A DNA stretch of 63,947 nucleotides, the filler included, from Psammoneis japonica (Eukaryota), in assembly GCA_008632985.1 (NCBI GenBank). It is 6 parts of 6 records of this genome, joined end to end, with 100 filler letters (N's around TTAATTAATTAA, not from the genome) between each part and the next. Parts side by side here need not be neighbours in the genome. Positions count along the whole stretch, not along the records: positions 22,735 to 33,807 come from QPGO01000519.1; 5 more parts are not named here. One strand, written 5' to 3'. A program made the position numbers and the translations under genes. Below, one piece after another: positions 11,852-59,085 of this stretch. Every line of letters starts with the position of its first letter. Position 1 is the stretch's first letter. Under the pieces are notes generated by a model. It was not told the DNA's origin and did no database searches. It was given only the letters and a program-made list of their open reading frames with translations.

Positions 11852-12040
11852 TGAACAAACGCTGCCATGAGACAGCCAAGAATTGGGTGTGAGACAAGAC
11901 AGAGTGTTGGACAGCATCAGCAGGTTCCACAGTTGTGAGATGTCACGCTGCTGGGACCACCAAATGAGTGACAGTGGACCAGCCATTGCCAATGGTGTGT
12001 GAATTGCCAGCATTCGTGACAGTGTGCCAGCATTTGTTCA
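11852..12040 (-). repeat. Copia 3' LTR
   Basis: Aligns with 21410-21593; TG...CA ends with terminal inverted repeat. Confidence 0.88.
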
Positions 12041-15000: not shown

Positions 15001-15504
15001 GACTCTCTTCTTCAACTCATGGATGGATGCCTCGGCCAGGTTCTGCCAGGGGCTGTGCGGGGTGGACACCTCCTGGTGCATCCTGCATTCCTTGCAAATC
15101 TCCTTGGTCTGGCCTTCTGCCATTTCCGGTGTGCCATCCAACACAAGGACTTGCGGAATGCCAACATCATGCACAAATGACATGATGGCATTCGGGTGCA
15201 TTGACCTGACCTTGGAAACATCTGGTCAGAGCAGAAGTGTCTCTTGACAGCAGGGAACTCAAGCCACAGAGCTTTCTTCCAGACTTTCCGCTCGGATGGC
15301 ACGCAGACATTGTGGACCCCTGCCTGGGTCGTCACTCTGAGGGTGTTCTTGGTGGCTGTCAAACCAATGTTCCACCTCTTGGAGAGCATCTCGGGTGTGA
15401 TGGTTGATGCACGACTTGAGGTCAACAGTGCATGCACCCATTTCCGCTTGGCACAATCCAGGTGGATGTCTGGGTTGCACCGGTCGTGCAGCCCGTCTCC
15501 CTCA

Positions 15505-15900
15505 GACGGGTTCCAGCCCCAGGTGGGACTTTTTGTGACATTGGGCCCGCAGAATTCTGCGTGCGAGCTCTGCAGCAAAATCATTGGGCAATGAACATGT
15601 GAATGATCGCCAACAGAAAAAGAGGCAATTTTGCAAACGCATCTCCTCCTCCACACTTGAAGCACGTGCTTTGCAGCATGCCCGGGTGTGTTCTTCAGAC
15701 ATTGAAGAACACACCCAGAGTGTTTTTGTCAACATGAATGCAGACAACAGAAAGCCTTTGGCTTCGCAAAACAGGCGGTGTGGAACAATTTTTTGTGACA
15801 GAGCACGCAGAAATGTGCGCGTGAAACATGCGACGGATGACAAAAAACAAACATGTCACAGCTCAGCAGTGCAAGGTCCCACCCAGAGCTGGAGCGCGTC
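15505..15900 (+). mobile_element. MITE copy 1 (~396 bp) inside the Copia
   Basis: TIR GACGGGTTCCAG..AGGTGGGAC / GTCCCACC..CTGGAGCGCGTC; 4-bp TSD ctca/ctca. Confidence 0.88.
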
Positions 15901-16131
15901 CTCAATGTTGTTGTGGGAGATGCGCTCGCCTGAGCAACCAGGTGGCGATGCAGAGAATCGTCGTCATCAGTGTCCACAATGGCGTTCTTGTCATGATGAG
16001 ATGTTTGGTGTGAATGAATTGAAGCGACACACCTGGTCGCGTTCATCATCATTGCCTGTCCGTCAGACTTCACTGACCCTTGGCGCTCACTGGCACATGC
16101 GTGCGCTTCCTCCTTTTGCGCCATGGCATCA

Positions 16132-21409: not shown

Positions 21410-21593
21410 TGAACAAATGCCACCGTGACAGCCAAGAACTGGGCACAGGACAAGACAGAGTGTTGGACAGCATCAACAGGTTCTAGAGCTGTGAGATGCT
21501 GTGCTGCTGGGACCACCAAACAAGCAACAGTGGGCCAATCGCCAACAGCACATGAACTGCCCATGTTTGTGACAGCATGTCAGCATTTGTTCA
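21410..21593 (-). repeat. Copia 5' LTR
   Basis: Aligns with 11852-12040; followed on the minus strand by ttgtcagagcc, resembling a Met-i PBS (ggtatcagagcc). Confidence 0.85.
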
Positions 21594-21830
21594 TGATTTT
21601 GCACCCTTTGCGATTTTGCACCCTTTGTGATTTTGCACCCTTTGCCGCCACATTGCGCCCTTTGCGATTTTGCACCCTTTGCCGCCATTTTGTGCCCTTG
21701 GTCATTTTGTGCCCTTTGTGATTTTGTGCCCTTTGCGATTTTGCACCCTTTGTGATTTTGCACACTTTGCCGCCATTTTGCGCCCTTGGCCATTTTGTGC
21801 CCTTTGTGATTTTGTGCCCTTTGGTGCATT
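21594..21830. repeat. ~17-bp minisatellite, right part
   Basis: Same unit as 11527-11851. Confidence 0.9.
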
Positions 21831-22081
21831 TGGTGGAGGGTTTGGGCTTGGGTCATGAGGTGGCACGAAACGCTTCCGGTTGAATGACAGACCCCACCTG
21901 GTCGATGCCAAGTGGCCATGGTTGAAGAACAGACCATGCAAAAATGGATGCGCACCCGTGTCTGTTTCTCATCCACAGCCGAACTCAGGACATGCATTTG
22001 CCAAAGCGATCGATGCAATTTTGCTCCTGTGACAGACAGACCATGCAAAATGGGTGCGTGCCGCATCCAACTTGCATCCAC

Positions 22082-22420
22082 GACGTCCAGGTCCAGGTGG
22101 GACCTCGCACTGCTGAGCTGTGACATCGACAGTTTTTTGAATCTCGTCGTATGTCGCGCACGCAGAATTCTACGTGATTTTTTCACATTTTGTGTCATTT
22201 TGCGGTGCACTTGTTGAGCGATCCGTCCAAAAACTTTTGACATTTTTTGTTGCAGCGCGATTCTACAATGTCTTGAGAATCGCGTGGGGCAGGTGCATTT
22301 GCAAAAACGTCGAGTGGCAAGAGGCACAATTGTGCCACAAACTTGGCCGTTCATTTGATGTTGAAGATGAACACATCCATTGATTAAATTCTCGTGCTGC
22401 GGAGCTCGCACGCAGAATGA
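22082..22420 (-). mobile_element. Truncated MITE relative (another fragment at 22741-22850)
   Basis: Aligns with 23767-24110. Confidence 0.7.
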
Positions 22421-22851
22421 CAGGATTTGAACAGGATTTGGATGCGCGCGAAGCATCGCGTGCTGTTTAGTTTACCGCGCACAGTTTTGTGTGCTTCAGT
22501 TCCGCGCGTTCACGCGCGATGTAGTTTGCTTTCGAGCCAACAAGGCTCACAAGAACAATGACAGTACCCGATTGCACGATCACACGTCTTTCGGCTCCTG
22601 CAACGGTCTCTGAGCGGAGACTCATCTGCCATTTNNNNNNNNNNNNNNNNNNNNNNNNNNNNNNNNNNNNNNNNNNNNTTAATTAATTAANNNNNNNNNN
22701 NNNNNNNNNNNNNNNNNNNNNNNNNNNNNNNNNNATCATTGACGCGCTCCAGGTCTGGGTGGGACCTTGCACTGCTGAACTGTGACATGGACAGTTTTTT
22801 GAATCACATCGCATGTCGCGCACGCAGATTTCTACGTGATTTTTTTGATCG

Positions 22852-25800
22852 GACAAACAATGCCACCCATCTCTCTCCAATCCAAAAGTTCCTGCAAGCG
22901 GGGTGACCATGAAAGAGGGTCCAACCAACTCGTTGCCTTCTGCTGATGTTCCTCTTTCACATGCATCATTTGCTGACCTTCTTTTGGGCTCAATGAAGGC
23001 TGGTGCTCCAGATCCCAAGACGATTCCAGATGATGACCGTGACACTCCCGATCAGGGGAGGGAACCAGATCCCTGCAAACAAGACACTGATGTCCCTTTG
23101 TCCACTGATCAAGACCAAGAATTTGAGTGCCTTGATGTGACCAGCAACCAGCATTTGTCACCCCTCAGTGCCGTGTGCATCTCTCTGATTTTTTCTCCCC
23201 CAGAATCACCTGCAACCTTTGCATCCTCAGCTGCTCCTGTTGTCCCCATCAACCGTGTGCTTCATGATTCGACGATGTGTTGTGCACAGATTGACGCTGG
23301 TGCTTGGGCATCCTGTGCAGGGAACAAGACCCTCCTTCATGCTTGCACTCCATTTGGACCTGATGACCCTTGTCCTTTGTAGATGCTTCCTGCTGCTGAA
23401 GGCTCTGATGCGGCCCCCTCATGGCTTTGGTTGTTTGCAAGTGCCTGCAGACAATCCTGAAGGGTTCCTTCTTGTGCGCACCTTTCACCATCCAAGCCTG
23501 CACTCCACTTTGATTTATGAACGTGATTTTGCGCGGGCTTCTGGGTTTGGGGGTGGTCGGTTGCCACTTGTTTGCATGATTTTTCCTGAATTTCACCGTG
23601 CTTCACCGTGGTGAAAATAACAAGCCATGAGTCTGTGACGGAGGTGGCCCATCTGCCAACTCTCATTTGTTTTGTGTTTGTTGTGTGTCAAAGATCATTG
23701 TGCATGCATGAAAAGTTGGTAGACAGCAAACTGCGTTTTTGAGAAATGTCAATGATTGTCATCATTGATGCGCTCCAGGTCTGGGTGGGACCTTGCACTG
23801 CTGAACTGTGACATGGACAGTTTTTTGAATCACATCGCATGTCGCGCACGCAGATTTCTACGTGATTTTTTTGATGTTTTGTGTCATCTCACGGTGCACT
23901 TGTTGAGCGATCCGTCCAACAACTTTTGACATTTGCTTGTTGCAGCGCGATTCTATGATGTCTTAAGAATTGTGCAGGGCAGGCACGTTTGCAAAAACGT
24001 CGAGTGGCAAGAGGCACTGTTGCACCACAAACTTGGCCGTTCATTTGATGTTGAAGACAAATGTGTTCATTGGTTGAATTCTCGCACTTCGGAGCTCGCA
24101 CGTGGGATTCTACGGGCCCAATGTCACACGGAGTCTCACCTGGGGCTGGAACACGTCCATTGTGTGCTTCAATCGTGGTGCTGATGGTTCTCGTTTTCGT
24201 GCGCAATCAGGAACACTGACGAAAATGTCGCCAAAATGGAAAACTGAGACATTTTGCATTGTCTTGCGACAATCAAGAAACAATGCATTCTCTTTAGCTC
24301 GGCGGATCTACATGCATGCTGGAACAATCGTTCATTGCCAGTTTGATGAGACATTTCGACAATGTCGCCAAAATCGCCAGTGGCACTCGAGCAACTGGTC
24401 AATGCAACATGATGCAAATTAACACATGATGAGTTTTAGCAAGGAAGACACATGGAGACAATGTGAGACAAAGTGAGACAAATTGAGACAAAGTGGGGTG
24501 ACTGTGAACAATTCTTGCATTCAAAAATGAACACTGTGAAAAACCTTGTTCAAGTGCAATGGCAATTTTGGGACAAACGCGGGGATGACCCCCCTTGAAC
24601 CTCAGGCTGTTCGATTGGAGCTCCTTGGGACTTGCCAACCACAGCTTTGCAGCACCTGGTGCAAATCCTGCTGTGACAGTCAGCTCGTCACCAGTCAGTC
24701 CCGGGAAGAATGGAAATGCTGCCACAAGTTGCAGTCGTGATCACACAGGTCATGCACTGAAAAGACTCAATGGCAAGTTCAACACCATGACCTGCGCAGG
24801 CCATGCATGCTGTGATCATCAGGTTGTTTGCTGACTGTGGTCAATGCCAGAACCTGCGTGGATTCCATGTGCTGTGACAAATGGACAAACTTGAGGCGGA
24901 ACACAGCTTTAATTGTGAATCGTCTGATGCATGTCAGTGCGCAGTTTTTCACGTCAATGTTCAACAAACTCCATCTGACCCCTCACTGATGGACACTGAG
25001 TTGTTCTTGATGCAGTGTGATTCGACCGCCCATGTCTTGCTGCCGCTGTCTGCCCCTGCTCTGGTCCGCTCTCTCAAGGTTGAGACTGAACGTCTTCTGT
25101 GGCATCAATGACTTGGACATCCCAGCAACCACCACTTGTGCAATGCTCACAGGCACATCAAGGGCATTCCAAAGTTCTGACATGCCAATCCAGTCCTTGA
25201 CATTTGTCCTGCATGTGTCCAAGCCAAGCAAGTCAAGACTCCTGCTGGACCCAATGCAACTCAAAAGGCAACTCGACTGCCTCACTCGCACCAAGCTTCG
25301 TAAACTTGACACATGGCCTGAATGGGAAGAAGGCAAGCAGTGCCAGTTGGGCCAATTTTGTGCTCTTGGCATGCATGGCCCTCCCCAACCACATCCCCCT
25401 GGAGTGAATGTCATGCACCCGCATTGGGATTGCATGGTGAAGCCGTGTGGACAACATCATTCTCGGCAATGTGGGGATGGATCCAAGTTGGCAATGCCAG
25501 CTTTGCATGAGCTGACTTCCACCCATTCGTCGTGTGTGGAACGCTCCATCAAAAAGATGTTCTTTGCTCTCAGTGCAGCCACATTGTGTCGTGTCTTTGG
25601 AGGTGATGCTCGGGATGCCTGTGCTCATTCTCCTGGCCCTTCACAGCCGGTTTTTGTTGCCATTGATGATTTCTTCCGCTCAAGCATGCTCTTCAAGGCC
25701 ATCCTGAAGCTGGTGTTCTCTGGGAAAAGCGCGTCAATTTGATCCTCAAGGGTGCAAAACTTCTTTTCCGCAACACTGCTCATGACAAGTGCATCCACTC

Positions 25801-25915
25801 TGGTGAACATGATGGTGTCAAGGTCCTTCTGCTCTGTCAGGTCGATGATTTTGCACTTGCTTGTCCCTCCAAAAAGATTGCAAAAGAGATCTGCGACCAT
25901 GTTGGTGTCACAAAT
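22852..25915 (+). mobile_element. Internally deleted fragments of a second Ty1/Copia element
   Basis: Protease-like AQIDAGAWASC, GAG-pre-integrase LLWHQ*LGHP, RT STHSSCVE..GGDARDACAHSP and HDKCIH..LLLCQVDDFALAC. Confidence 0.8.
23767..24157 (-). mobile_element. MITE copy 2 (diverged interior, same TIRs)
   Basis: TIRs gatgcgctccag..ggtgggac / gtctcacc..ctggaacacgtc; 4-bp TSD catt/catt. Confidence 0.85.
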
Positions 25916-27374
25916 GCGTGCGATCGTACGGTTTTGTTGGTCCGTCCATCGAACGATTTTCGATTTCAGCTCTGGCACTTTTTTTTCCCGCGAAAGTGGT
26001 GGCGTCTGCGCACACTTCTACGCAGTGCACACTGGAAATTGATGCCAACAAATCACTTTTAGAGAAACGCTCCATGGCGTTGTCGACCCCTGCTCCTGCC
26101 TCACGCTGAAGTTTTCCTGCCTGTCCTTGGCATTGCAGCTCTTCTTTTTGTTGCAGTGGCCATCAATGTGAGTGGGCATGAAGAAGAAAGGGAGCCATTT
26201 GGGGAAGAAGACCTAGAGCCGCTTGAGCGCAATGAGGCGCTGCCGCCAAGCATGACAGAACCGAAACATTTGAAGGTCGCCTGACACCACAAGACACTTC
26301 ACACGGAGGCTGATGTGCCGGGCGCTCTAAAGGACATGAGCGCTGCTGAGTGGAAGAATCAGAAATTTTTGCGAGAGAGCTTCAAAGTGCCAAAGAGCAG
26401 AAGGCAGCGGAAAGATCAACAAACACATCATGCTTTTCCAATTTGCCTCATTTTGTTTGGTCCTGCAAGCTCAGACTTGTGCCATCGAATGACAGCAGCA
26501 AATTGGTGGTTGAATCTGTCGAAAGAAGAGCAAAAGGAAGCTTGGGAAAGGTTGAGGAGGCAGTTTGTAACTCCGTCAAAATCTGCAGACCTGAACTGTC
26601 AGTGCGATGCAGCCAAAGTGCATTGGGGTTTTCAACTCAGATGACGTTCGAAAGAGGAAAGTTGAAGAATCCGGATCGCACGAGAAGCTTCATGGAACAG
26701 CAAAGCATTCCAAACATTCTGACATGCCCAGATCCAACGTGCAGCTTCGAGATCAAGCTGCACGACACCCAGAGGCCTTGGCTTGTCATCACCTGAAGGT
26801 CGCCATGGATCGTTCTCAAGTCACTGCCGAGAATGAATCATTGGTTGATGGTGGGTGTGAACCATGCATGATGACATGCTCAACTGTGCATGCCCCTGAA
26901 AAGTCTGGAAGGCTGTGCTTGAACAAACGTTCCATTCCAAAAGTCAGTCTCCGCTCTCGTGATCGCGATGCTTTGGTTGCGCAGTTTGGGCCGGCAGTCG
27001 CGGCGTTGAAAAACAATGGCTCAGTTCAAAGCACAGATGATCTCACTCCAGATTTGATTGTTGAGAGCCTTGAAAAATCACAGAACTGCAAACTCAGCTG
27101 CGTGTCAGATGCCAAGAATTGGACCCCCAACCTCTGTCTGGATGGGCAACGTTCCCATCGCAAGTCGCTGCTGGAGAAAAGGGTGCTCCCTTCAGCATCT
27201 GACGACAGTGGCACTGCTGCCATCTTTGAAGATGATGAATCTGGCAGTGATGATGATGGTTGTGATTTGCATTGATTTGCACAACCAACTCAACAATTGA
27301 AATTCTGGTGCCTTGCAACGACCTGCATCTGCGGTGTGATGAATGCCCACCGCCAGTTCCGGTGGGCCCCAGCA

Positions 27375-28489
27375 GGAACCTGTCAGTTGTCGGACTGACA
27401 TTGTTGTTCGCAGCGCTGTGTGGGCTGTGCTGGAAAATCGAGTCATTGTGACCGCGACAATTTTGGCGGTTGTGTAGAAGCCGCGTGGGAACTTGGCACA
27501 CGGTTGGGAACCAACATTTGAATTTTGTCTCATTCCAACCGTCGGAACCAGCGCAGGCGATTTTGACAAATTCGGCCGACTCCCGACATAGAGCCATGCA
27601 GGCATGTGCCACTGTTCCGGGAACCGGCCGTCGCGTTCCCGGAGTGAGCGATGCACATGATGTGGCACTGGAGGGTCATTTCTGACTCGCAGAAATCTGC
27701 ATGTTGTCTGGCATTGAAACTCAAAAAGTGCTCTCAACCCAACGGTGGTTCCTGCACATGCTGGCTACGACAATGTTGTGCAGGTCTCTGGCATGTGACG
27801 TCACAGAGTTCAATCGTGTTTGAATGCCGCAAACCAAATGCTGACTGTGAAAAAGCATGTGCAAATGAACAAACACACAAATGGAACCGCCCAATTAAAA
27901 CAAATGTACATCCACATGTGTGTGCAACACACACATGTGTGTACAAAGCAAACCCACGAAACGACACCGCCATCGAGAGGCCGTCACCATCAACCATGGC
28001 GTCTTCCAGCGGTCCCACACGAAGAACACATCACCAGGATCACTCAACAGAGATCCATGCCAATGCATTTTGTTGGTCTCTGTGTTGCGTCAGTCCTCTA
28101 ACTGATGCGTTCCTGTGGAAACCGGTCAGTCACGTGGATGCGTCCTCACCTTCGGGTGAGCTTTGGCGTCGGGGACCTCCGCCTCAGCGCACCCTCAGGT
28201 TCGGCCGCTCCGGCCTCCGTGGAATTTGTGTGTGTGGGAGAACTGGTGCTCAGCCTGCCGGCTTCGTGACTGGCTCCGATGACCTCAGCTGACGCTTCGG
28301 TCATTCCCGCACAGAACCCATCAGTCATCGGACTGACATCATTGTTCGTAGCGCTGTGTAGACTGTGCATGGAAACTCGAGTCATTGTGACCGAAACCAC
28401 TTTGGCGGTTGTGTAGAGCCCCACGTGGGAACTTGGCACATGGTTGGGAACCAATGTTTGAATTTTGTCTCGTTCCAACCGTCGGAACC
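27375..28489. repeat. ~175-bp direct repeat pair (27375-27549 and 28314-28489) in an unclassified TpA-depleted repeat
   Basis: Direct alignment; the second copy is interrupted by the Gypsy LTR. Confidence 0.75.
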
Positions 28490-31400
28490 TGCAGTGTCTC
28501 GCACCCTGTTTTTCTGATGTGTGGCATTGATGAATCCATCAGACACAACGGAAGCCGTTGTAACGGGCTTCGCTGAAAGCGACCCTCATTACCTCGGTCT
28601 TTCGCTCACAATTTTGTTGTCACCAAAGTCTTTATCTCGTTAGACCTTGCACTGTAATTACAGTCGATTCAAAGAACTGGATGGAGACTGGGAACAATGC
28701 AAACAAATTGACTAAACGTGAGAAAAGAGAACTGCGCGCAAGAGCAGCAGTTTGGGCTGTTGAGCACCAGAAACAAGTGCAACAGCGTAAATGACACGAG
28801 CAGAATTTGGCGAGCCGAGTGCATCATTTGGAGTCAAAGGCAGAGTCCCTGGAAAGGACTGTTGAACAATTGCACTCCCTTTTTCATGATGAGTGAATCG
28901 TTGAAGGAGCCTTGCATTGGCTGTGAAGCTAAATTTGAGCATTCTGACTTGGAGGACGTGAAATTGACCCAATTGCATGATGACGGCAGCACTCGTACAA
29001 AAAAGTGTCCGCGTTTTGATGGCACTCATGGCATTGAAGCATTGTCATTCGTTGAGGATTGTTTTTGTAAAATTGCTGTGAAACTGGAGCACACTGCTGG
29101 CGAGGAGTTGTTCAAAAATTTCGAGGAAGTGCTTGCGGACACGGCAGAGGACAAATGGGCGAATTTGACCAATGCAATTGACGATGCCGACAAAACTGTC
29201 GAGCGTTTTGATCAGGAAATCAATCGTTTTTACTTGTCTCATTGTGACAATGAAGCGCGTGATGCGATGATTGAACATTTGCCAACTTTGAAAAAACCAT
29301 TCAAATCTGAAGTGCAGGCGCGTGCGGATTGCATGGAAACCTTGATTCGGTGCTCCAACAAACTTCCGGGAAATGCTCCTCAAGTCAACGAAGCTCAGAA
29401 GAAAAAGATGACATTCGACAGCTTCCCTCGTCCGTGGCATGAGATGCATGCTCGAGCAGGACGAGCGACAGTGAACGACACTCTCGCTGAGATCATCAGT
29501 CACATGAACAACGAGAAATCTTTTGCTGACAAGAGCAGCAACAAGAAACAGGACAAGAAGAGGAAAGGCAATGGTGCTTCGTCTCAAGCTTCAAGACGCT
29601 CTCGTGGCAACAGTGGCAGAACAGATCCAGAATCTAGATGCCCGGTGCACACGAATCACGACCACAAGTGGAAGGACTGTGTTTTGAATCCAGAAAGCCA
29701 AAACTGTTGGCCGAGGTCAGACCGTGGTGGTCGTGGCGGAGGCCGTGGTGGAGGCCGAGGAAACTGCCAAGGCAGAGGACCCCAAGGTCGAGGCGGTCAT
29801 GGCAACTTCCAAGGTCGAGGACATGGCAATTGTGGCAATCAAGGAGGATGTGGAGGCCGAGGTTACGGCAATTATGACAACTCCCAGAATTCTCAAGGGA
29901 GTGGATCCTGTTGTCAAAATCAAAACGGCACCCAAGCCAACGGTGACACCCAAGGCTGTGGAAATCCGGCTGGAGCAGCTCCTCCTGGTGGCTGGCAAAT
30001 GGAGTCACACCATTTTGATCAAGGAGGGCCTCGTGAGATGCGAGGTGGAAATGGATGCGATCAGAACGGTCGCACCCATCAAGGCCAACGAAGTTGGCGT
30101 AATTGACAAGGGACGGAAGTGCCCGAGTCAGAGCGTGTCGCTCAATCTTTTTATGTTTCGTGTGATTGTGAAGAAAACACATGTTTTAATGTTGATGACA
30201 ATGTGGGAGACCTGATGGAATCTTGTGCTGTGAATGAAGAAAAATTGGGCGGCGTTTTGGAGCACGCTGTGCCAACCCCTAAAACTGCAACTCCTGAACC
30301 ATTGAATGTGGTGCCAATGACGTTGATGGCGGTGCATGCCATTCAAAATCAAGAGAGCAAGCAAGTGTTGCGCATGTCATTGGATTCAGGAGGTGCCAAC
30401 ACTCTTGTTCATTCTCGAGTTTTGCCGAAGGGAGCGAATCCGACCATGAACGATGAAGGCTTTCAGACGGCAGCCGGACGATGTGAATCCTCCCGATGCG
30501 TTGTTATGAAGGACTTGACATTGCCAGAATTTGACAAGTCAAAACAAGTCGACAGCATTGCGGCTCAAGTTTTTGACACCCCATGCAAGTGTGGTGTAAT
30601 TTTGGGACAAGACTTTTTGTCGAAGGCCGGAATCGTGCTTGATTTTCGATTTGGAATGACAAAGTGGTTGGGAACGTCGATCCCAATGAAGCAATCCAAT
30701 CATTGGAACTCAGTTCAGAATTGGTTGGACACACTGGAAGACGATGGAGAGGACGGAGACGATGAGGAAGCCTTTGGACAATCTTTTGTGATGGACGCCA
30801 AATGTGAGAAAGTGTCATCCGTGAAAGTGGCGCAAGCTCAAACTCACCCAACTCAAGAACAACGTGATGAGCTGCAGGCAGTGCTTGAAAAGCATGAAAC
30901 CCTCTTTGATGGAATGCTTGGCAAACATCCGCATGAGACTGTTCATTTGGAAGTTGATCCTGACGCTGTCCCCTTCCATTCTAAGGCTTGCGAAGCATCC
31001 AAGAGGGATGAAGCCGTCCCCAAGAAAGAACTGCAGCATTTGTGTGATTTTGGCGTGCTGGAACCAGTGGGACCAACTGAATGGGCAGCCGGAACTTTTG
31101 CAACTCCCAAAAAGGATGGACGAGTTCAATGGGAATCCGATTTTTGAGAGTTGAACAAGGTGCTCAAGCGAAAGGTCTGTCCTCTGCCGATCATTCAAGA
31201 CGTCATTCACCGACGCTCGGGACACAAGCACTTGACCAAATTGGACCTCACCATGTTTTATTGTCATGTCGAACTTGACGAAGAATCCAAGGATTTGTGT
31301 GCCATCGTCACTCCGTTTGGAAAATTTCGACACTGTCGATTGGCCATGGGTTTGAAAACCTCTCCCGACATTGCTCAAGCCATCATTGAAAAAGTGGCAA

Positions 31401-33807
31401 ACGGAATCGATGTTGAAACTTACATCGATGATGTTGCTCAATTTGATGATTCGTTTGATGCTCACATGCATCGACTCGATGAGCTGTCATCCAGACTAGA
31501 AAAGAACAACTTGAAAATTAACCCACTCAAGTGCGAATGGTGTGTCCAAGAGACGGATTTTTTAGGCCATTGGCTCACACCTGCAGGAGTCCGACCGTGG
31601 AAGAAGAAAGTGGAAGCGGTGCTGCGAATGCAACCACCTAAAACTGTGACGCAACTACGATCGTTTGTCGGTGCGGCAACTCATTGTCGCAACATGTGGC
31701 CTCGTCGCTCACACGTGCTCACTCCACTCACGAAGTTAACAGGCAAGAGCAAGTTGGAATGGACCCCTGAATGTCAACGAGCCTTTGAAGACATGAAAAC
31801 CTTGATGCTGGACGACACCCTTTGGGTCTACCCGGATCATGACAAGCCATTCCACATTTGTGCTGACTCTTCGGACTATCAGATGGGAGCCGTAATTGTG
31901 CAAGACGGGAAACCAGTGGCTTGCTGGTCCCGAAAACTCAGCGCAGCACAACAGAACCACTCTACGATTGAAAAGGAATTGTTGGCGGTGGCAATGTGTT
32001 TCAAAGAATTTCGGAGCATGTTGTTCGGAGCTGACTGCACTGTTTTTACGGATCATAAAAATCTCACCTTTCGCACGCTCAATTCTCAACGAGTTCTTAG
32101 GTGGCGACTCTTCTTGGAAGATTTTGCCCCAACTTTCGAATGCGTTGATGGCAAAGATGACCTCTTGGCGGATTGTTTTTCAAGATTGCCGCATGTGGAC
32201 CCTCCTGCGGAAGGGAAGTGTGCTCCTGACAAGGGCAAACTGATTGATTTTAAGGCGATCGACCCTGCCATGCTGCCGCATGAAGAAGAACTGGACGACC
32301 AAAACCGTGTGTCTCATTTTTCCTGTCGTCGTGAAGAACCATCTCCATTTTACTCTTCTGTCATGGACGACCCCGAATTGTGTGAATCATTTTTGAACTG
32401 TCCTTCTCTTGAGGAAATGCAAAACCCCACAACTGTGCAACGAATTCAAGAATGCCAATTCATCGACGTGGAGCTGAACAACATGCGACAACAACACCCA
32501 GAACGCTTCGTGGTGGAACATGTGAATCAGCATCCTGTAATTTGTTGTCGTGCTCGACCGAATGATCCTCCGACTGCATGGAAAATTTGTGTTCCAACGG
32601 CGTTGCTGCATGACATCATACGATGGCATCACAGGATTTTGGGACATGCAGGAGTGCACCGAATGCATTCCACTGTTGGCGCACATTTCTGTCATCCTGC
32701 CCTTCGTCAATCCTGTGAAGGATTTAATTGTGCTGATTGTCAACGTTTGAAAACTTTAGGCCCTGGATGTGGGGACCTGCCTGAACGAGAAGCGCCTTTG
32801 TTGCCATGGACGGAAGTTGCGGTTGATCTCATCGGTCCCTGGAAGATTGAAATTCAAAACCATGAAATCGAATTCAACGCTTTGACTTGCATTGATGCCG
32901 TTTCAAATGTGACTGAACTCATTCGCATCGAAAACAAAACCTTGTCTCACATTGCCCAACAATTTGAAAATTGTTGGTTGTCTCGTCATCCTCGTCCCAA
33001 CCGTTGCATCCATGACAATGGTGGAGAATTCGTTGGAGAGGACTTCCAATTGCTGTTGCAACAAGCGGGAGTGGAAGACGCTCCGACTGCGTCGCGAAAT
33101 CCACAAGCCAATGCGGCATGCGAGCGTGTGCATCAAACTGTTGGAAACATCTCACGCACTTTGCTTCATGTTCATCCTCCACAGAATGTTGAGCAGGCTA
33201 ATCAACTGGTGGACAATGCATTGGCAACCGCCATGCATGCAATGCGATGTGCGGTTTCTCGTGCTCTCAAGATTTCACCCGGTGCCATGGTTTTTCAACG
33301 TGACATGATTCTTGACTTGCCGGTCCTAGCCGATCTTGCTGCCATTCAAGAACACCGACAAGCGATTGTCAATGCGAATCTCCGTCGAGCCAACGCTAAA
33401 CGCCGATCCTGCGATTTTCAAGTTGGTGGACACGTTCTACTCAAGTCTGTCGATCCCACCAAGCTCGAACCACGAGCTCACGGTCCATGTCCTGTCGTTC
33501 AAGTGCACGCTAACGGTGCGATTACGGTCCAACGTGCACCTCATGTGACAGAACGATTGAACATTCGTCGCGTCGCACCGTGTCGCACCTGAGGTTGAGG
33601 GTTTTCTCCCCAACATTTGGGTTTCCCTTCTATCCTCATCCATTGGAATTTAAATTTTTGAGTCCCGCATGATTCTCGACACTCGAATCATGGAAGGGAA
33701 GAGTGCAGTGTCTCGCACCTTTTTCTGATGTGGCATCAATGAATCTATTGACATAACGGAAGCCGTTGTGACGGGCTTCGCTGAAAGCGACCTCGTTACC
33801 TCGGTCT
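28490..33807 (+). mobile_element. Ty3/Gypsy LTR retrotransposon, near complete
   Basis: LTRs start tgcagtgtctcgcacc at 28490 and 33704; PPT ggaagggaagag 33692-33703; 3' LTR runs into a gap. Confidence 0.95.
28886..33592 (+). pseudogene. Gypsy gag-pol in a single frame with two in-frame TGA (30104, 31145) and many Tyr->Cys/His changes
   Basis: Zn-knuckle-like CPVH..H.WKDC, protease LDSGG, RT YIDD, RNase H ADSSDYQMG..EKELL, integrase VDLIGP..HDNGGEF..NPQANAACER. Confidence 0.92.
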
Positions 33808-34523
33808 NNNNNNNNNNNNNNNNNNNNNNNNNNNNNNNNNNNNNNNNNNNNTTAATTAATTAANNNNNNNNNNNNNNNNNNNNNNNNNNNNNNNNNNNNN
33901 NNNNNNNGAATTGCTCAGGCTCACCCACACTCGAGCAGCGGGAGTCCATTTGCTCGAGTTGAATCCCAATGGTCGAACCGAGGTGCAATTTGTTGCCTGA
34001 TTTGAATCCAACTCTTCAAATGACATGCCGTCATTCTCTTTTTCTTCAGAAAGACGTTGCTTCTTCCTTGCTCATCATGCTTTGTTGCTGTTGAGTGCAT
34101 CTGGATCGGTGTCGGAAAATTCGGGCAGCATTTCGGCACGATCAAGTGGCGCCCTTCCAAATTTCGTCTCTTGACGGCTCCACTTCGCAGCCACACCTCT
34201 GCAGATTCATTGCCAGTTGCTGGTGGATGAAGGTTTTGATGGGGCTTTCCAACAGTGATGAGAAGAAACATGTGATGTGATCGTTTTCCGCCCTTCTTGA
34301 GGCTGAACAAGTGTCCCGTTTTGTGCAAATTCACTCTGTCAGCAACACAATGTTGTTCTCTTCCGTCAAATTTGAAACCCCGTTGATGCTGCCATGCTGC
34401 TTCTTCAACTCTCCACCCACAATTTGGACTCCCTCATCAATGACATTGAATTTTGCATGTTGCAGAGCTCTGCCCACAGGTCTGCTGGCATCCATTGATT
34501 CCGAGCGAGAGAATCCAGGAACA

Positions 34524-37500
34524 AAACAAAACCCAAAATCTAATTTTAAGTGCTGCTGCACTTCCACCCTGCAACTCCGGCAACAAGCTGACCCACACTC
34601 CCAGTGCACTGGGTGCGGCAGGAGCACACAACAATTGGCCAAGATCGGCATCACCCTCTGGTGATGCCGTGCCAAAGTGGCTTGCGATGGCACGCACAGC
34701 CAGACGCCGGGCCTCTCGAATGCTCGACTCAAACATTGGCTTTACCATGGCGAGCCAGTTTTGGAGTCTGTGGGTGGAATGGGTGAGATGTTCATCTGCC
34801 GAAGCAAACAACTCTGCTCAATCCTGGGCCAAGTGCTCATCTGCCCTCAAGCACATCTCTTTAACCTCCGCCTCTGTGTCCCGTCGTTGCGAAGACTTTC
34901 GTGTCTCTGAGTTGTGTCCGTGCACTGCATCATTGTGGGAGTCCCACAATTCCCACCATTGTGACCACACACAACCACCAACAGTTGCCGCCCAGTCCAA
35001 TCTTTTGTCTTTGTCGGATGGAGAGCAACAAAAGCCGGAAGACTCCAAGTGCGACGTTTGTGCCTCATTCCACAGACAGGAGAAACGCCCACTGAAAATG
35101 TGGCGCCAACCAATGTTGTCTTGAGATTGAAACAGCTCTGTGACGCTGTGATGGACTTGGGTAGAATGGAGCAATTCCTCATTGAACCAACCCTCCAAGG
35201 CATGCAACAACAGGTCTCGTGTGGACGGGGAAGTGTGCATGTCGTCACATTTCTTCCGCAATCCTTGGAGGAACGTGCGCCGCCACGATGCATCATGGGC
35301 GCAACGCAGAATGTGATCCCTGTCTTCAAAGGGATGTTGGCAGTGCACACAACAGTCGGGGCATGTGGGATTGCATCTGTGGACAATCTTGTTCATTGGC
35401 AGCAGATCCTGAACCAATTTCACGGTGCTCACCTTTCGTCTTATGTTGCGAGACATCAGTTTGGAATGAACTTTCCAGTCGATGGATTCGCACACTGGGT
35501 CAGACCATCTGCACTTCTCCTGCATGTGTTGGATCAGAGCTGGGCTGGACACTTCGCAATGGAGAACTGATTTAAATTTCGAGTTCGCCGAAGCCGACTG
35601 GACATTCAGCAGTGCACAACAATGGGGCATTCGGGGAGCCATCAAGGTGTCTCCAGTGTGTTGACCCTGAAACAAACCTGCCAACCCGTTGGCTCTGACA
35701 CTCAACTTTGCTGGGAACGAGAGGGACTCGAACGGAGTGTTGTCATCCTGATGACTTTTAGTCCACTTCATGTCGACAACGTTGCTTTCAAGATGGCCAT
35801 TGCATTGGGCCTCCAAACTTGTCAGTGAAGCAAAGATCTCGTGGACAACGTCCCAATCCGGCGCCAATGTGTTGGCGACATGATTCCGACAATGAAAATC
35901 TTGTTGTCATTGTGAGTCATCGGCATCCAAAGGAAGCGGTGGGGGAGAATGAAAGTTGGCAACGTTGCGCACCAGAGAGGAGTTGTCACAATGGGCAACC
36001 ACACTGTGTGAAAAACAACAGCTGCAAAAGTCCATCACTCGAATGAGAAAGCGGAGAACTGACAAAAATCCGCGTGCTTCTGCACAATGCAAGGACGGTC
36101 GGAATCCAAAGACCGGTCCTGCACAATCCACCAGAATCACTCCGTCAACTGCTGGCGTCCAGCCAAAGGTGCCATTGAAATGCAACACAGACCCATCACT
36201 CCCCACTTCTGCACGGAAGCGCCCAAGGGACTCTGCCACTTCAAATGCCGATGCATGCATGTGAAGCGCACTGAACAGGGTTGACTCCCATGGCAACAAA
36301 GACCGCAGCCATTCGCAGAAGTCACCAAGGATGGGAGTTGTTGGAGGCATCTTCGCTGGGGATGCAGTGGATCTTGCTCGCCATCTGCCATCTAGAGTCG
36401 TGTCCACCATGACAGGTGATGCCAATGGGGATGGATCGGGAACTGTTTCCAACTGCTGAAGTGTTTCAGCACATGCGTCCTTGACTGGAAACACTTGACA
36501 ACCCGCATCAGAGCGGATGCACAAAAACTCTTCGGAGGGCTCGCAACAGGCCGGATGAAGCACACGCATCTTGGAGGCAGGAACGGTCCATTGACCTGAA
36601 GGGGTTTGGAGGATGGAGGCACCTTCGTTGCACAACAGAGCCATCGCCCGGCTCCATTGTTTCCAGGCGCGAGCAGACGGGTGTGCCTGTTCGACTGGAT
36701 TGAGTGACGATGTGCTGCTCACAAGGGAAGTTTGCCCTTTCAACTTGAGCTCATCTAAATGTCGACCATCGGGAAGAGTGACGTCTGAAACAGCAAGCAC
36801 CCGCAGGAACAGCCTGCAACAATTCACCCACCTGATCTCTTTCTCCGAGAAAAGATTAGAATCCAGCACCACATCCATGATGTGTTGATCATTCTCTCGT
36901 TGTGCAGGAAGGACGCCAGTGAAGTCCAGTTCGAAGTGAGCGTCCATGCGGGTGAGAAAGGATCTCATTGACACAAACCATTTGGACTCGGAGTGTGGGA
37001 GTTTTGTGTTGACATCTTGCAGAAAACTTGACCCTGTTCCGAGCTGGAGCTGCATGCATGCCACTGCAATGCGGGACAAAGCATGAGGTTGCCCAGTTCC
37101 GCGCCAGTGTCGAAGGAACTGCAAACATTGAGCGACACCCTGCTCCACGTCAAGAGAACAGAATCCTCCGCCTCCCAAGGTGTGCGGTCCGAACAAAACA
37201 TCCCGCTTGGTGTCACGGTTGTAGCCGCACTTGGCAAATGCAGTTCGCACAGCCTTGCGTTGAATCTCAAGCAATTCCTTTGGCTGAAAATGTGTGTTCG
37301 GAAGGACACACGTGGCAGAGGCCAGGTGGCACGCAAAGCAGTGAGTCCATGCCTCATGACGGTCCAATGGACACGACCGGAGAAACAGAGAAATGTCGTC
37401 ACTTTTTGTTTTTGGTGCTTTGCACTGAGTCTTCTAAGTGCCTGCAGGAGATTTGCAACGGCCCAGTGTCTCATGGGAGGAGCAAGCGGAAAGTTGGGTG

Positions 37501-40500
37501 CTGGATCTTTTGGTGGATCTGTTGGCGGAGTGGATTTCAATGTCAATCTCATCATTGTGTGCCCAAAGGCATGGCTCGCCATCAGCAGCAAAATGCCATT
37601 CAACAGCATGAAACAAGCACTTTGGAAGCTCCAGCTCATGCCCTGCCACGTCCAGGAGGTCGCACCACAGCTGATTGTCTTGCTGCACTTGAGGGACAAG
37701 GTCCAGCGCATCTGGTTGGGGATCAGCACAAAAGGCGTTCACTTGATTCGAAGTGTCGTCAACACACCCTCTGGCACACATCCGCATTGAAGCTGTCCGG
37801 TCGGGAGTTTCAAAGTGGGCCCCATGAGCTTGACTGTCAAACAGCCAAAATGAGCTGTTGCAAATTTGATTCCAGCAAAAGGGTGAATTTCCGCTGCCCT
37901 GACCAGTGCCGTAGACAGGGAGCTCATCTGAATGGGAGCAAGATGATGTTGAGAGGCCAAGAACTGTGTCTTTGGCCAGCATCTTGCATCATGTGAAGTG
38001 GTGTTTGCCGTCTGAGTTGCTGATTTTGGCGTGCCGTTGCTGCGGCTTTCGAGTGCTGTTAAAGCAGGAATGTTGCAATCGCAGCATGAGGTGCAATCTC
38101 CATCACTGTGCATCGCAGTTTTCCGGGATGCTCCGCCAATCTCAAGCACAAGTTCCTCAAGGTGCACCGGTGCATGAGCATTCAAAAAGGGATGCGTCCC
38201 ATAAATTCCTGGATTGTGCAGATGACGGTGTTCCATGTTCTGCGCCAAGGCTCTCCATTTCACACTGGATGTCAATTGGAAATCTGCCTCGTAGATGTGG
38301 ATGACTCGGAGACGATGCACCTTGTTGTTTCCCGGCTCTTTGAAAATCATGACGTTGACAACATCCTTCCACCTGTTGAACGAGCACCCCCAATGCAGAG
38401 CACAGTTTAACAAATTCAAGCGAATCCGAATCAGCCACTGTTGAACTTCATTTGAATGCTGACACTCAGACGTGAGATCACCTTCGGGGGTGGTGGAGCC
38501 CGAATGAGAATGAGCCACGTGCATTGCTTTCCAGTGTCCCAAATGAAGGCCCGAGAAAATAGAAGCAGATGCAGTTTCCTTCCATGCCTTGAGTTTCCCT
38601 TTAAGATCTGATTCAGACAGGAAGTCAGACACCAACACTGGTGAACGTCGTCGAAGATGTTGAACGAAGAGAGCAGCAGCACTGTTGAGAGAGGATGTGT
38701 CGCATTCTCCATCTAAGATCAAGTCAGCCACAACCGTGTCACCTTCGTGTCCGAGATCCACAGACAGGGGAGGAACTGCAGGAGGTGTGCCATGTGCCTG
38801 TCCAAAGTGTCGCTGATTCTGAGAACACAATGCTGCTGAAACGTCGTCTGGGGCATCGATCGTGATCCAATTTTTGCACTCTTTAGGATTGGCAGCCGGG
38901 TTGTGAGGGACCTGTGCGCCATTGACTCCTGTGTCATGTTTTGCCTTGCATGCATTGATCTTGCGAAACAACCGGGCGGTTTCTTCTGACTTCCGCATGT
39001 TCCGAATAATTCTTGCCGATTTGTGGGCGGCAGCTGCACCGTCCAGGTCCAATTTGGCAATCTTCTCTGCCAGTTCCCGCTCACGTTGCTCAATGCTCTC
39101 CTGATGGGTTCCAGTCCCAGGTGGGACTCCGTGTGACATTGGGCCCGTAGAATTCTACGTGCGAGCTCCGCAGTGAATTTACACTGCAATGAAAACACAA
39201 ATGATCGCCAACAGAAAAAGAGGCAATTTTACGAACGCATCTCCTCCTTCATGCTTGAAGTGCATCATCAATGGTTTGCCTGGGTGTGTTCTTCAGACAT
39301 CAAAGAATGTGCCCAGCGCATTTTTGTTCTCATGAATGTTGAAAATAGAAAGCCTTTGGCTTTGCAAAACAGGGAGCATGAAACAATTTCGTAGAATGTG
39401 ACACGCAGAAATGTGCGTGCGCGACACACGATGTGATCCAAAAAACTGTTGATGTCACAGTGCAGCAGTGCAAGGTCCCACCTAGAGCTGGAACGCATCT
39501 CCTTTGCAACTGCCTTGCATTCAGCCTGTGCCTTGCGAAAGGCAACCTGACATTCATGAAATGTCGTTGGAATGGAGAATGAGCCTGTCAGCTCTGAACG
39601 CACCTGCTGGATCTGGGTGACATGATCAAGACGGTTCCTCATCATGGAAAGAACACGAGCAAAGATGTGTGCTCTGTGATGGAGATCTGCCAACTTGACC
39701 GACCAGTCGGGTTCACGGTGGGATCGACACTTTTTCACGGATGCTGGGGAGAACTGAAGAAGATCTCGGTCCAAGCGTTCTGCCAGTTCGTGATTCGGAG
39801 CATCAGACTCGATCAGCTGGGTGGATCGTTCCAAGACAGAACGGCCATCAAGCATGGGTCCAATGGAGGTTAAATGCGAGGTGACCTGGGGTTTGGAGGA
39901 AGCCTGAATGTCGCGAAAGGAAGCTTTGGGTAGATCGACGGTTGGGTTCCCGAACAGTTCCATCGTGTCGAAGTCCACAAAATGTGCCCGATGATCTGAC
40001 GTGACACGGTGTCCAAATGCCTCACATCCGCCCAGGCGAGCCGCAGACAATGCTCCTGGAGATGCCAGAACACAGTCCAGTCTTTTGGAGCCTCTTGCAC
40101 ATGTGGAAAATTCGGAAACACCGAGGATTTGGAACAGGACGTCGGACAAATTGAAGCATTGGGCAAGTGCAGCTGGGGAGTCTGCATCCAAAGAGAAGTC
40201 CGCATTGAAGTCACCAAACAAGATCACTTCTCGGTCATTCTCCGCACGAAACTCTTGGAGCACACGCGAGAGGTCCGTGCAGAAGGCTTTGCGGGGGTCG
40301 ACAGAGTTGCGGCCCTGTTGGCGCAGCAAATGCAATTGTTGAGCATGGGCAGTTGTCTTCCCTGGTTGTTTTTGTTTTTTAGCGCAGACTCTGTGGCATG
40401 AGACAAACATGACTTGTCACCCATTGCAACCGTCAAACACCTGAACAGACCACCGGCCCAACGGATCAAACTCCTGGGAGCGGAGTCGGGCCGAGATGGA

Positions 40501-42970
40501 ATTGCACGAGACAATTGCTGTGCCACCCAGTTTGCATTGGGCAGAAAAGGGAGTGGAGCTGCAAGAGAATGTGCCTCTCCCGTGGAGGAGGGACTTCAAA
40601 ATCGCAGACCGACACACAGAGAGCACATCGAACTGGGTGGCATCCAGACACATTTCTGAAATTCCAACCACGTCCGCTTGAATTTCGTTGGCAATCTGAC
40701 AATGACCGTTGAGATCCCCGCCGCGCTTGTCAAACTTGCATCCATTGGCGTTGAAGGCATGGAGTCTAGTGTGGTGTGGCAGTTTCGACCGCAGTTCATG
40801 TCCGATTGGTTCACTTGTCTTGAGGTGGGAAAAATCGATCCTGCGATCTGCTGAAGGAGCACAGTGTCTGCCGTCTAGTGTGTGTTGCCATGCAGTCAAA
40901 GGTGCAGCTGAAGAAGACTCGCTGTTCATGGTTGGGCCTCGCTCCTCCGAGGAGAAGACTGGGGCTCACAGCGATGCAAAGGGTCTGAGGCAGTTTGAAA
41001 GGAGAACTTGCGACATCGAGAGGCACATCGAAAAATGTGTGCCAAAGTGTGGAACTCTTGAAGTGTTGAGGCAATGTCAGGAGGGCGCCCAATCTGTTGA
41101 GGGGGAGGAGGTGGCGAAGTCCAACCCCACGCTAAAAATCCTTCTCTTTGTCACGATGGTTGCCAGACCTCTCTGGTGTTTCGTTGTTGTCAGGACGTTT
41201 CCGTGCAATGCTCTGTGTGGGTTGGCTTGCCTGCAACAGTTGGACGATCTGATTCATCTGTGACTGCATCCCGGACAGTTGTTGCGAGCAGCAGTCCTGT
41301 GTGGCCATCATGTCATTCATGTGTTGAGTGGTGAACGTGTTGTTCAATGCCTCCATGTCCCGAGAATGTTGTGCACGCATCTCAGCGAGGGCTTTGTCAT
41401 GTTTCTCTTGCATTGGGTTCACAGTCTGTTGAACTTCTGCCAACTGTGCTGCAACAATTGACGAGCCAGCGGTCGACTGTGTTGCCTGTGCATGAGCATG
41501 CGAGGAAGACGTCGAGCTTCGACACCCGGGAATGCCACACAGGAAGGTGGGGAGAACTGGGAGCAATGAGTGAAAATGTGAGGAGGCACCGCCGAGCCTT
41601 GAGAGGTCCCTCGTCCAGGGTGACCTCGTCCTTCATGTCCACGTCTGGCACATGGTTTTGAAGCAGGTTGTGTCGAACCTGGAGCCTGATCATCAGTCAG
41701 TGGAGAAACATCCGAAAATGCAAGAGATTCAAGACTGCGAATGCCAGCCGACATGACAGATTTGCTGGTGTCGGATGATTCTTCGAGGACACCTGACACT
41801 TGAGGAGGTTCCGAAAACAGGGGAGATGGGCAAGATTCTTTCAAAATGGAAGGGATCAAATTCATGACGCATGATGAAACAGCTGCACGGATGGTTTCGA
41901 AGTTCCGACGGTCCACAAGAATGTTGTGTCGTCCATCAACAATCGTGGATTGAAACACATCCTTCACTCCAGTCAGCGCTTTAAGGTGATTTTCGAAACA
42001 AAACATCATGTCCGGGGTGGTGTTCAGCAGTGGTGCCACGAAGGCATCTTCATTGTGACGAGCTTGCGTCTTGATGGCGTTGTGAAATGCAAGAGGGGAG
42101 ACATGATGAGTTTTCGCCATCACGATGTGAGTCGGGAGTTTGTTCGAAGCGCAAAGCAAAGCCTTGCCCGCAGTGCGATGTTCTTCGCGTAAAACTTCAA
42201 TGGCAAAAGCAGCTGTTCGAAGCGGTGTGGCAAGTCCATCATTGTTGGCACGCATCGAAGCAGGCATCAACCGAAATTGTGGCATTTTAGTGTGGAAACT
42301 TCCGAGATCACTGATGAACAATTTGGCAGCTTCGTCGACCGGAGCATGTTCAGTGGATGCAGCAACATGACATGCCGGAGTGGCCGTGTCGATGTCAGAC
42401 TCGTTCCAGAAATGACGTTTCACACCCACATTGTTGGAGTCCAAAATGCTCTGGACATGTGGATGGGAGCGTGTTTCGCGCAGTGGAGTCTTTGTGAGAA
42501 TGCGGTGATGCAGGCGGTGAGTTGCCGGGCGTTTTTCGCCGCTGTGATTCGTCGTGATGACAAAGTGTTGTTCGTGTTGGAGAGAAGCAATCCATTCTGC
42601 CACGTTGAGATTCGTGACACGGTTGTTGTGGTTGTCAAGAATCTGAACATCCTTGTGGCAAGTGAACAGAATTTGCTGTGAGACTTGCAAATGGGTGGCA
42701 GCAAGAGTCATGGGCTTGCACGACAATTCTTTGCCACGAATTTCAAAACGGATGGTGATCTCTTCGAACTGATGCTCAGTCGGCTTGGAAGAAAGCTCAA
42801 TGGAAGACTGGTCAACAGTGACATCGTCTGCCACAATGGCGTCTTTGTTGTGAGTGGGGGCGCGGCTGCCGTCAGTGACGGAAGAAGACGCCATGGTGGT
42901 TGGCTGTTCTGTGGGGAACCTGGCATTAAAATTACGCAGGCAACATCAACGCGAGTGCGTGCAGAGTTGC
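34524..42970 (-). mobile_element. Full-length degenerate LINE (ORF1; ORF2 with APE, RT and RNase H), possibly Ambal-like
   Basis: 16-bp TSD agagaatccaggaaca at 34508-34523 and 42971-42986; ORF1 from 42894; APE GDFNA..RLDC..SDHR; RT LRVIHIYEAD, GTGQGSGNSP, GCVDDT; RNase H SDGS..AE..CDN..KSHQD. Confidence 0.9.
39103..39499 (+). mobile_element. MITE copy 3 inside LINE ORF2
   Basis: TIRs gatgggttccag / ctggaacgcatc; 4-bp TSD tcct/tcct; removing it restores VAKESIEQRER. Confidence 0.9.
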
Positions 42971-58804: not shown

Positions 58805-59085
58805 GTCTTCACGCGTCACCGCAGAAAATGGGCCCAAAGTTGTTTGCGCGTTTTACTGGCAGGCCTATGGATGATGATGTTGCCAGTGTTGTTCTTCGGG
58901 TTCGGAAAGACTGCGTTGGGTTCGGATTGACTTACTTCCCGTGACATTGACAATTTTATGCTACCGGTGATACTGTACTGTATTGCGGCTGGTGACGGCA
59001 GAATTTTTTCGTTATCACACTCATATATTCATGAAACACACACAAACTAGCTGAATGTCGAAGAAGAAAACCATAATAATTTTTC

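Follow-up and report, generated by a model that had tools for sequence, protein, structure and literature searches.

The window, the whole 63,947-nucleotide stretch of DNA from the pennate diatom Psammoneis japonica that we analysed, contains a Ty3/Gypsy element with the hallmarks of its class: 162-bp LTRs with TG...CA ends, a polypurine tract and, in other copies, a short target duplication. All its features lie on the plus strand. The limits of the 5' LTR (28490..28651, TGCA...TGCA), in which most TA sites of the family are now TG or CA, were set from other copies bearing 5-bp target duplications; in 15 other copies these are exact (13) or carry one mismatch (2). A 12-bp perfect palindrome (28652..28663) directly follows this LTR at the position expected of a primer-binding site. 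Next comes an open frame of 464 amino acids from stop to stop (28712..30106; 0.6% tyrosine), without a Pfam match and probably gag, judging from its position, and then the N-terminal part of pol (30107..31147), which ends at an in-frame stop, likewise has no Pfam match and contains an LDSGG motif that we take to be protease-like. Reverse transcriptase, RNase H and integrase follow in Ty3/Gypsy order (31148..33592). A polypurine tract (33692..33703), with letters identical to those preceding the 3' LTR in other copies, leads to the 3' LTR (33704..33807), which is truncated at the contig end, leaving about 105 of 162 bases comparable between the two LTRs. At least 41 LTR matches belong to the family, and copy numbers are lower bounds, with 40 of 55 LTR candidates scored in the first LTR search.

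The five LTR differences listed in the initial annotation are all real and correctly placed: with the 5' LTR given first, TG at 28528-9 and CA at 33737-8 (site 1), CA at 28537-8 and TA at 33746-7 (site 2), CA at 28546-7 and TA at 33754-5 (site 3), TA at 28561-2 and TG at 33769-70 (site 4), and CA at 28587-8 and CG at 33794-5 (site 5). Six of the seven substituted columns fall within these steps, in agreement with its view that the point differences lie at TpA or CpG. Absent from that list were an A/T column next to a one-base gap (28540-1) and a deficit of about 7 bases in the 3' LTR close to the contig end, which may be assembly noise. Across 16 other copies, with 32 LTRs, the former position has TA in 23, TG in 7 and CA in 2. 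Among the same 32 LTRs, TA predominates at site 1 (TA 19, TG 6, CA 3, gap 3, AA 1), site 2 (TA 22, TG 7, CA 3), site 3 (TA 23, TG 6, CA 3) and site 4 (TA 24, CA 7, TG 1). TG and CA are therefore the derived states at these four sites, and the TG/CA consensus that would have reversed the polarity was not found. For the catTG/catCA site, where the ancestor had been proposed to be TA or CG, TA stands and CG does not. The ctCA/ctCG difference is indeed at a CpG, and belongs to a separate process, ordinary CpG decay (site 5: CG 30, CA 1, TG 1). A single LTR pair is thin evidence by itself, but over 18 pairs 174 of 190 substitutions are of TA/TG, CA/TG, CA/CG or TA/CG type when strands are folded together, with 8 transversions, and the claim that each LTR retains TA lost from its partner is borne out in 5 of 17 pairs.

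Outgroup comparison also points to TA as the ancestral state. In the pol region from reverse transcriptase to integrase, 15 of 20 tyrosines conserved across 120 outgroup proteins are now histidine or cysteine, and tyrosine content is 0.6% compared with a mean of 3.5%. The observed/expected ratio (o/e) of TpA is 0.11-0.21 in 16 of 17 close copies and 0.37-1.07 in 27 metagenome relatives, none of which shows the same erasure (lowest 0.37-0.38, at three loci), in a comparison limited by collapsed short-read contigs. The opposite course, in which CpG decay produced TG and CA and a RIP-like CpA>TpA change then produced TA, could draw on the genuine CpG decay in these copies and on old erased domains with CpG o/e near 0.3. 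However, besides the outgroup tyrosines and TpA ratios, the 17 copies contain 201 sites with TA, TG and CA but no CG, only 7 with all four states, and 597 that are invariant TG or CA; the outgroup test rules this course out for the family, and we give it practically no weight.

The mutation spectrum is narrow. These site tallies exclude a divergent copy (L047, 80% identical), which was included only in the sum over 18 LTR pairs; partial loci (L048-L050) were left out of the alignment and the comparator L044 out of the rate counts. Copy interiors have lost 80% of TA, to TG or CA, and about 9% of CG, with transversions at or below 0.5%; in the family copies CG decays about 18 times more slowly than TA is lost. 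Taking the TA-richest copy as reference, T[A]>G was counted at 2907 of 5150 positions, compared with 1.2-3.1% in other A contexts, T[G]>A at 70 of 11179 and TA>CG at 8 of 4080, such double changes being rare because one change already destroys the TA motif. Minority changes at C[G] number 372 of 9494. The 3' base matters (C 4.1, T 4.2, G 1.4, A 1), and after T[A] the next A context is C[A] (1.75% vs 0.3-0.5%). That mutation affects both strands, as the initial annotation had it, is confirmed by a fitted strand ratio of 1.05 (site bootstrap 0.92-1.20). Outcomes common to copies do not exceed the site-bias prediction (0.65 vs 0.68), and changes are scattered singly, none of the 6 lags examined showing runs of one strand (p 0.08-0.80). 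We found no preference for hairpins or unpaired bases (36/40 and 15/40 permutations did equally well), no relation of TA retention to distance from CpG (p 0.18 and 0.69) and no dependence of it on local AT content. Losses of TA and CG correlate per copy (rho 0.81, 16 copies), yet the two are separable, since the TA-richest copy keeps 250 of 278 TA and has lost 16 of 299 CG, inside the range of 15-34 in other copies.

The erasure extends well beyond the element. Three small contigs side by side in the window (11527..44848) are TA-erased almost throughout (TpA o/e 0.03-0.15), and the contig at 44949-55835 has a TpA o/e of 0.60. In the sampled genome, 143 of 360 bins, about 40% of the sampled DNA, are erased, and the bin distribution is bimodal. 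A host gene for an Orn/DAP/Arg decarboxylase, present as a broken copy (55943..58512, plus strand), has the same signature, with a TpA o/e of 0.05 and 13 of 16 conserved tyrosines now cysteine or histidine; both copies of this gene are hit, and a search for an unmutated orthologue found none. The targets may extend beyond foreign or mobile DNA, a description that the family copies do fit. Among 64 frames from erased DNA, 1 has a transposon Pfam match and 59 have no Pfam match at all, and erased and normal bins match other sequenced parts about equally (15/143 vs 22/194, with 0.6 Mb of 91 Mb covered), so an equation of erased DNA with repeats is not established genome-wide.

What befalls an LTR depends on the chromosome beside it. 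LTRs adjoining TA-rich DNA keep 186 of 204 TA and those adjoining TA-poor DNA 70 of 209 (rho 0.60, p 4e-4, 30 LTRs, without the 3' LTR of the window copy or, because of a gap, that of L039); the exceptions are two LTRs with TA-rich flanks in which both TA are changed. The outer 300-500 bp of copies are spared where the adjoining DNA is unmutated, and LTR CG loss follows the same division (2/150 next to TA-rich flanks, 16/148 next to TA-poor flanks). Reverse transcriptase error, RNA editing and cDNA editing cannot produce this pattern, and the initial annotation was right to place mutation after integration: the change is chromosomal and post-insertion, and is not reverse transcriptase error, RNA editing or RIP. 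Two A_deamin-family genes in the genome, the indels of the window 3' LTR at a contig end, and the fact that interior changes alone give no date relative to integration could be cited for reverse transcriptase error, ADAR-type RNA editing, cDNA deamination or an assembly artefact. Against these stand strand symmetry, reciprocal LTR differences, the flank dependence, a target duplication whose two copies differ by TA/CA, and the mutated host gene; the one-strand, clustered, pre-integration pattern of APOBEC or ADAR action was not seen. Contigs from a public run, possibly from the source sample and thus not independent, also speak against them, 116 of 132 differing places being transitions with paired CA/TG swaps. 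Events before integration, or artefacts, are accordingly very improbable.

Two other processes could act after insertion. Polymerase eta inserts G opposite template T in gap filling after AID attack, and its motif is WA; an error-prone polymerase, or failed repair, might do likewise in gap filling of methylated DNA. This would account for both strands of duplex DNA and for the co-variation of TA and CG loss per copy and at edges, as if T:G mismatch repair had opened patches. It sits poorly with an A[A]>G rate of just 0.5%, under that of C[A]>G and unlike the WA motif, with 49 transversions against 2907 transitions at TA, with the absence of clustering or of a link to CpG distance, and with the roughly 18-fold excess of TA loss over CG loss; we consider it unlikely, at perhaps one chance in a few. 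Fungal RIP requires RID/DNMT4 and a sexual cycle and is triggered by duplication, and a RIP-like system with reversed chemistry might likewise choose its targets by repeat pairing rather than chromatin state. The size of the family, the mutation of both decarboxylase copies and 27 PF00145 matches in the genome (at family level only) would suit such a system, as would a relationship of diatom DNMT4 to RID (PMC9998398, in excerpt). But LTRs, the most repeated part, are spared beside unmutated flanks, one copy escaped nearly whole despite 16 close relatives, and the gene adjoining the decarboxylase, also duplicated (90% identical), is unerased, with 143 transitions, 112 transversions and 86 shared TA. 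These lean against a duplication trigger, as does a single-copy main target in Bigelowiella natans (bioRxiv 10.64898/2026.01.13.699255, in part), and homology triggering is improbable.

That the copies underwent post-insertion, domain-bound TpA hypermutation is close to certain, and we put at about 80% the probability that a host process turns A:T into G:C at TpA within silenced chromosomal domains. Copies arrive TA-rich and then mutate independently, on both strands and by scattered single changes; the targeted domains are probably methylated heterochromatin. A TadA/ADAT2-type enzyme may deaminate adenine to hypoxanthine, with G fixed by replication. The likely effect would be to cripple transposons, whose tyrosines become histidine or cysteine and whose TA-rich promoter motifs disappear; now and then a host gene would be lost too. 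The chances that the chemistry is adenine deamination are about even, and a selected defence and a side effect seem similarly balanced. The T[A]Y context resembles TadA-type adenine deamination, which makes such an enzyme a candidate. An ADAT2 gene is present that has HAE and PCxxC as well as the Asn linked with DNA editing; ADAT2 and this Asn are widely conserved (PMC10354150, in excerpt), so their presence does not discriminate. A special deaminase, either a duplicated ADAT2 or a chromatin-domain fusion, was not found among 9 PF00383 and 5 PF14437 matches. The MPG/AAG glycosylase was not found, which proves nothing in an incomplete assembly, and Endonuclease V is present, which counts against deamination. 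We offer only tentatively, and would not favour, the fullest version: that the diatom carries a base editor of natural origin for genomic adenine, guided by chromatin, in which a TadA/ADAT deaminase at methylated heterochromatin rewrites duplex TpA over much of the genome to defend against transposons. Together with B. natans, it would then be the SAR-wide equivalent of fungal RIP, of opposite chemistry.

To our knowledge, few natural cases of adenine deamination in genomic DNA are on record. A process known from one rhizarian alga is here extended to a diatom and seen directly on transposon copies. The rules of targeting added here, namely action in the chromosome, restriction to domains, sparing of edges and a T[A]Y context, narrow the enzyme search. 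Diatoms are genetically tractable. DNMT5 knockouts have been reported in P. tricornutum (PMC9998398, in excerpt). LTR-based dating fails in the P. japonica genome, since two copies have identical LTRs beside interiors that have lost about three quarters of their TA; erased genes retain long open frames, and can be annotated as tyrosine-free, histidine- and cysteine-rich proteins.

Known systems share some of these features. APOBEC enzymes act on LTR retrotransposons by C>U change during reverse transcription, before integration; the diatom process is likewise probably a host hypermutation of retroelements, but it is an A>G change that acts on chromosomal DNA and affects both strands. In fungal RIP, transitions at one dinucleotide turn CpA into TpA, wrecking repeats once they have inserted and at times striking host genes. 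Both features recur here in the opposite direction, TpA being destroyed rather than made (T[G]>A 70/11179, TpA depleted), with no sign of homology triggering or strand-coordinated bursts. ABE7.10, with a stated preference for 5'-YAY (PMC10188366, in excerpt), shares the clean A>G change and favoured 5' and 3' pyrimidines, although the 5' T here is far stricter than Y. Amphioxus ADAT2 (ADAT2/3) prefers GAA and hairpin loops (PMC10354150, in excerpt), unlike the T[A]Y context without hairpin effect seen here. The closest counterpart comes from B. natans (Mettrop et al., bioRxiv 10.64898/2026.01.13.699255), where hypermutation specific to TpA strikes the integrated DNA of NCLDVs and virophages. 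The available part of the preprint describes an ongoing process, at a rate raised about 1000-fold, active in some lines only, and proposes ADAT2, unproven; its text lacks the words diatom, LTR and CpG. A diatom report of TpA hypermutation was not found in the literature searched, which covered few subscription journals. As far as the preprint goes, both processes make TpA>TpG and TpA>CpA changes on both strands with hardly any others, and both are confined to domains, with TpA-poor, CpA/TpG-rich windows and a normal spectrum elsewhere. They differ in host and target, a rhizarian with integrated viral DNA against a pennate diatom in which a host gene is hit as well as copies of an LTR retrotransposon, and in extent, TpA o/e being 0.45 in B. 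natans and 0.03-0.2, near saturation over about 40% of sampled DNA, here. The B. natans process has a rate measured per generation; what the diatom adds to the B. natans description is a sparing of edges that depends on the flank, TA loss that varies together with CpG decay, and a T[A]Y context.

The window joins several contigs with N spacers. One small contig ends in a Ty3/Gypsy element of 5.3 kb (28490-33807), with RT, RNase H, and integrase domains in Gypsy order (Pfam). The LTR measures 162 bp (TGCA ... TGCA), and other copies of the family have 5-bp target duplications; the 3' LTR of the window copy runs for 104 bases before the contig ends. The host is a pennate diatom, because the named homologues of a host gene come from Nitzschia and other Bacillariaceae (72-76% identity). 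Directly 3' of the 5' LTR, where an obvious primer-binding site is absent, lies a perfect 12-bp palindrome (28652-28663) that is identical in 16 of 18 copies despite containing two TA steps. Two full copies (L031 and L041, G000:C42:61975-72749) lie tail to tail, inverted relative to each other, and one 5-bp target word is common to all three junctions. At another locus (L039, contig G000:C198) the 3' LTR is interrupted by a gap of Ns, and the sequence past this gap matches the 3' flank of locus L035 exactly, a possible join of two loci in the scaffold.

An LTR search gave at least 41 matches, from which 20 regions were taken; 18 two-LTR copies, including the window copy, were aligned, and one divergent copy was left out of the site counts. 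The initial annotation had listed five differences between the LTRs of the window copy, and all five are confirmed. It placed these differences at TpA or CpG steps. The 18 LTR pairs together contain 190 substitutions, of which 174 belong to the TA or CG type; 8 are transversions. Among the 32 LTRs of 16 other copies, TA predominates at the four TA-type sites (19, 22, 23, and 24 LTRs) and CG at the fifth (30 LTRs).

Four lines of comparison support TA as the ancestral state in the family. In the 17 copies compared, TA, TG, and CA but never CG occur at 201 dinucleotide sites and all four at 7; 328 TG and 269 CA sites are invariant. The presence of TG and CA without CG at one site implies ancestral TA, because no other ancestor yields both by single steps with CG absent. 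The TA-richest copy (L044) retains TA at 250 of 278 such sites. With this copy as reference, T[A]>G changes number 2907 of 5150, and RIP-like T[G]>A changes 70 of 11179. At 20 positions where 60% or more of 120 outgroup proteins carry tyrosine, the window element reads histidine at 8, cysteine at 7, tyrosine at 4, and phenylalanine at 1, while retaining 11 of 12 conserved tryptophans and 35 of 37 conserved prolines. Finally, observed/expected TpA is 0.37-1.07 in metagenome relatives (27 loci), 0.59 in L044, and 0.11-0.21 in mutated copies. Three of the relatives (L128-L130) have TpA of 0.37-0.38 with TG/CA raised to 1.52-1.53, possibly a partial erasure in another organism.

At 166 interior sites TA is kept in 518 cells and replaced by TG in 1167 and by CA in 936. 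TA loss in the interior is 80% and CG loss 8-9%, so that TA decays about 18 times as fast as CG (-ln 0.20 versus 0.09). Pairwise comparisons among the closest five copies give 230-307 transitions and 1-12 transversions. The 5' T is nearly required, since TA>CG occurs in only 8 of 4080 cells. A 3' C or T raises the rate to 4.1 or 4.2 and G to 1.4, relative to 1 for A; with T as the second base upstream it falls to 0.42. Both strands are hit, as the initial annotation had proposed, and at equal rates; no clustering of mutations was found in the copies. Beyond site bias we found no outcomes common to copies, so every copy mutated independently of the others, starting from a founder rich in TA.

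The proposal that the mutations arose after integration is supported by the dependence of the LTRs on flanking DNA. Across 30 LTRs, TA count tracks that of the kilobase next to the LTR (rho 0.60, p 4e-4). Where the flank is rich in TA, the LTR keeps 91% of its TA, the stretch at 162-300 bp 71%, and the stretch at 300-500 bp 43%; where it is poor in TA, the values are 33%, 36%, and 16%. Past 1200 bp, 21-26% is kept with either kind of flank. Copies with one LTR spared (5' or 3'), both spared, or both hit all occur, and in one copy the two arms of the target duplication differ by TA/CA; as exceptions, two LTRs adjoining TA-rich DNA are completely hit. In two copies (L036 and L038) the LTR pairs are identical, yet about three quarters of interior TA is gone, and LTR dating would class both as brand new. 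CG loss has the same edge pattern (2/150 beside TA-rich versus 16/148 beside TA-poor flanks) and co-varies with TA loss per copy (rho 0.81), which together point to a shared chromatin state. Copy age could contribute further to this covariation, and L044, with CG differences but without TA loss, runs counter to strict coupling.

Erasure of TA, its rewriting to TG or CA, extends beyond the family. Two large contigs were sampled over 180 kb in all (360 bins): 143 bins have TpA below 0.2 of expectation, 194 are at or above 0.35, and 23 fall between; the erased share of 40% is rough, one of the two samples having started beside an element copy. Erased bins have observed/expected CpG of about 0.3, compared with 1.0 for normal bins. 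An Orn/DAP/Arg decarboxylase gene (55943-58512) and its syntenic copy on another contig (G000:C157:27970-30275) have both undergone erasure. At 50 sites one copy reads CA where the other reads TG, and only 3 TA are common to both; cysteine or histidine stands in place of conserved tyrosine at 13 of 16 aligned positions in the first copy and at 11 of 14 in the second. A search for an unhit orthologue of this gene found none. Just upstream of the C157 copy, about 750 bp that kept TA lie between two erased blocks. The neighbouring syntenic gene pair (59029-62012 and G000:C157:33068-36049) shares 86 TA and has an ordinary spectrum; being only 90% identical, its members may be strongly diverged haplotypes, homeologues, or the result of an ancient duplication. 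Elsewhere in the window, erased DNA at 34821-42945 holds long minus-strand frames with a weak endonuclease match (E 0.00085), perhaps a non-LTR element; an erased long inverted repeat (63144-63945) has two arms of about 380 bp that differ mainly at CG-type steps; and a strongly G-skewed tandem array with a 132-bp unit (46424-47648) has normal TpA, a repeat that escaped.

The main rival explanation is that an error-prone polymerase makes the TpA changes. The low A[A]>G rate and the scarcity of transversions speak against the known polymerases of this kind. The spectrum consists of pure A>G changes, in the context T[A]Y first and C[A] second, similar to the YAY preference described for ABE7.10 (PMC10188366). 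No hairpin preference of mutated sites was detected. The genome encodes an ADAT2 with active-site motifs and the asparagine that amphioxus ADAT2 needs for DNA editing (PMC10354150); a TadA-like gene has aspartate at that position (aligned by eye). There are also two distinct A_deamin (ADAT1/ADAR-type) genes (G000:C40:112674-113392 and C79:344558-345390). All of these would be candidates, with none singled out by gene content or context. Endonuclease V was found in the genome, and a search for MPG found none. The C5 DNA methylase family has 27 matches (contigs G000:C297, C301, C10, and others), several of which, on C297 and C10, are broken and lie in clusters.

A literature search found no published report of such a process in a diatom. 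RIP works similarly, but its defining chemistry is not seen here. A preprint on Bigelowiella natans (Mettrop et al., bioRxiv 10.64898/2026.01.13.699255) describes the same TpA signature in integrated viral DNA, measures it in mutation-accumulation lines, and proposes ADAT2; within the preprint text covered by a term search, diatom, LTR, and CpG are not mentioned. The diatom shows the testable features of that process and extends it to another group of hosts and to new targets, with near saturation and with rules for where it acts.
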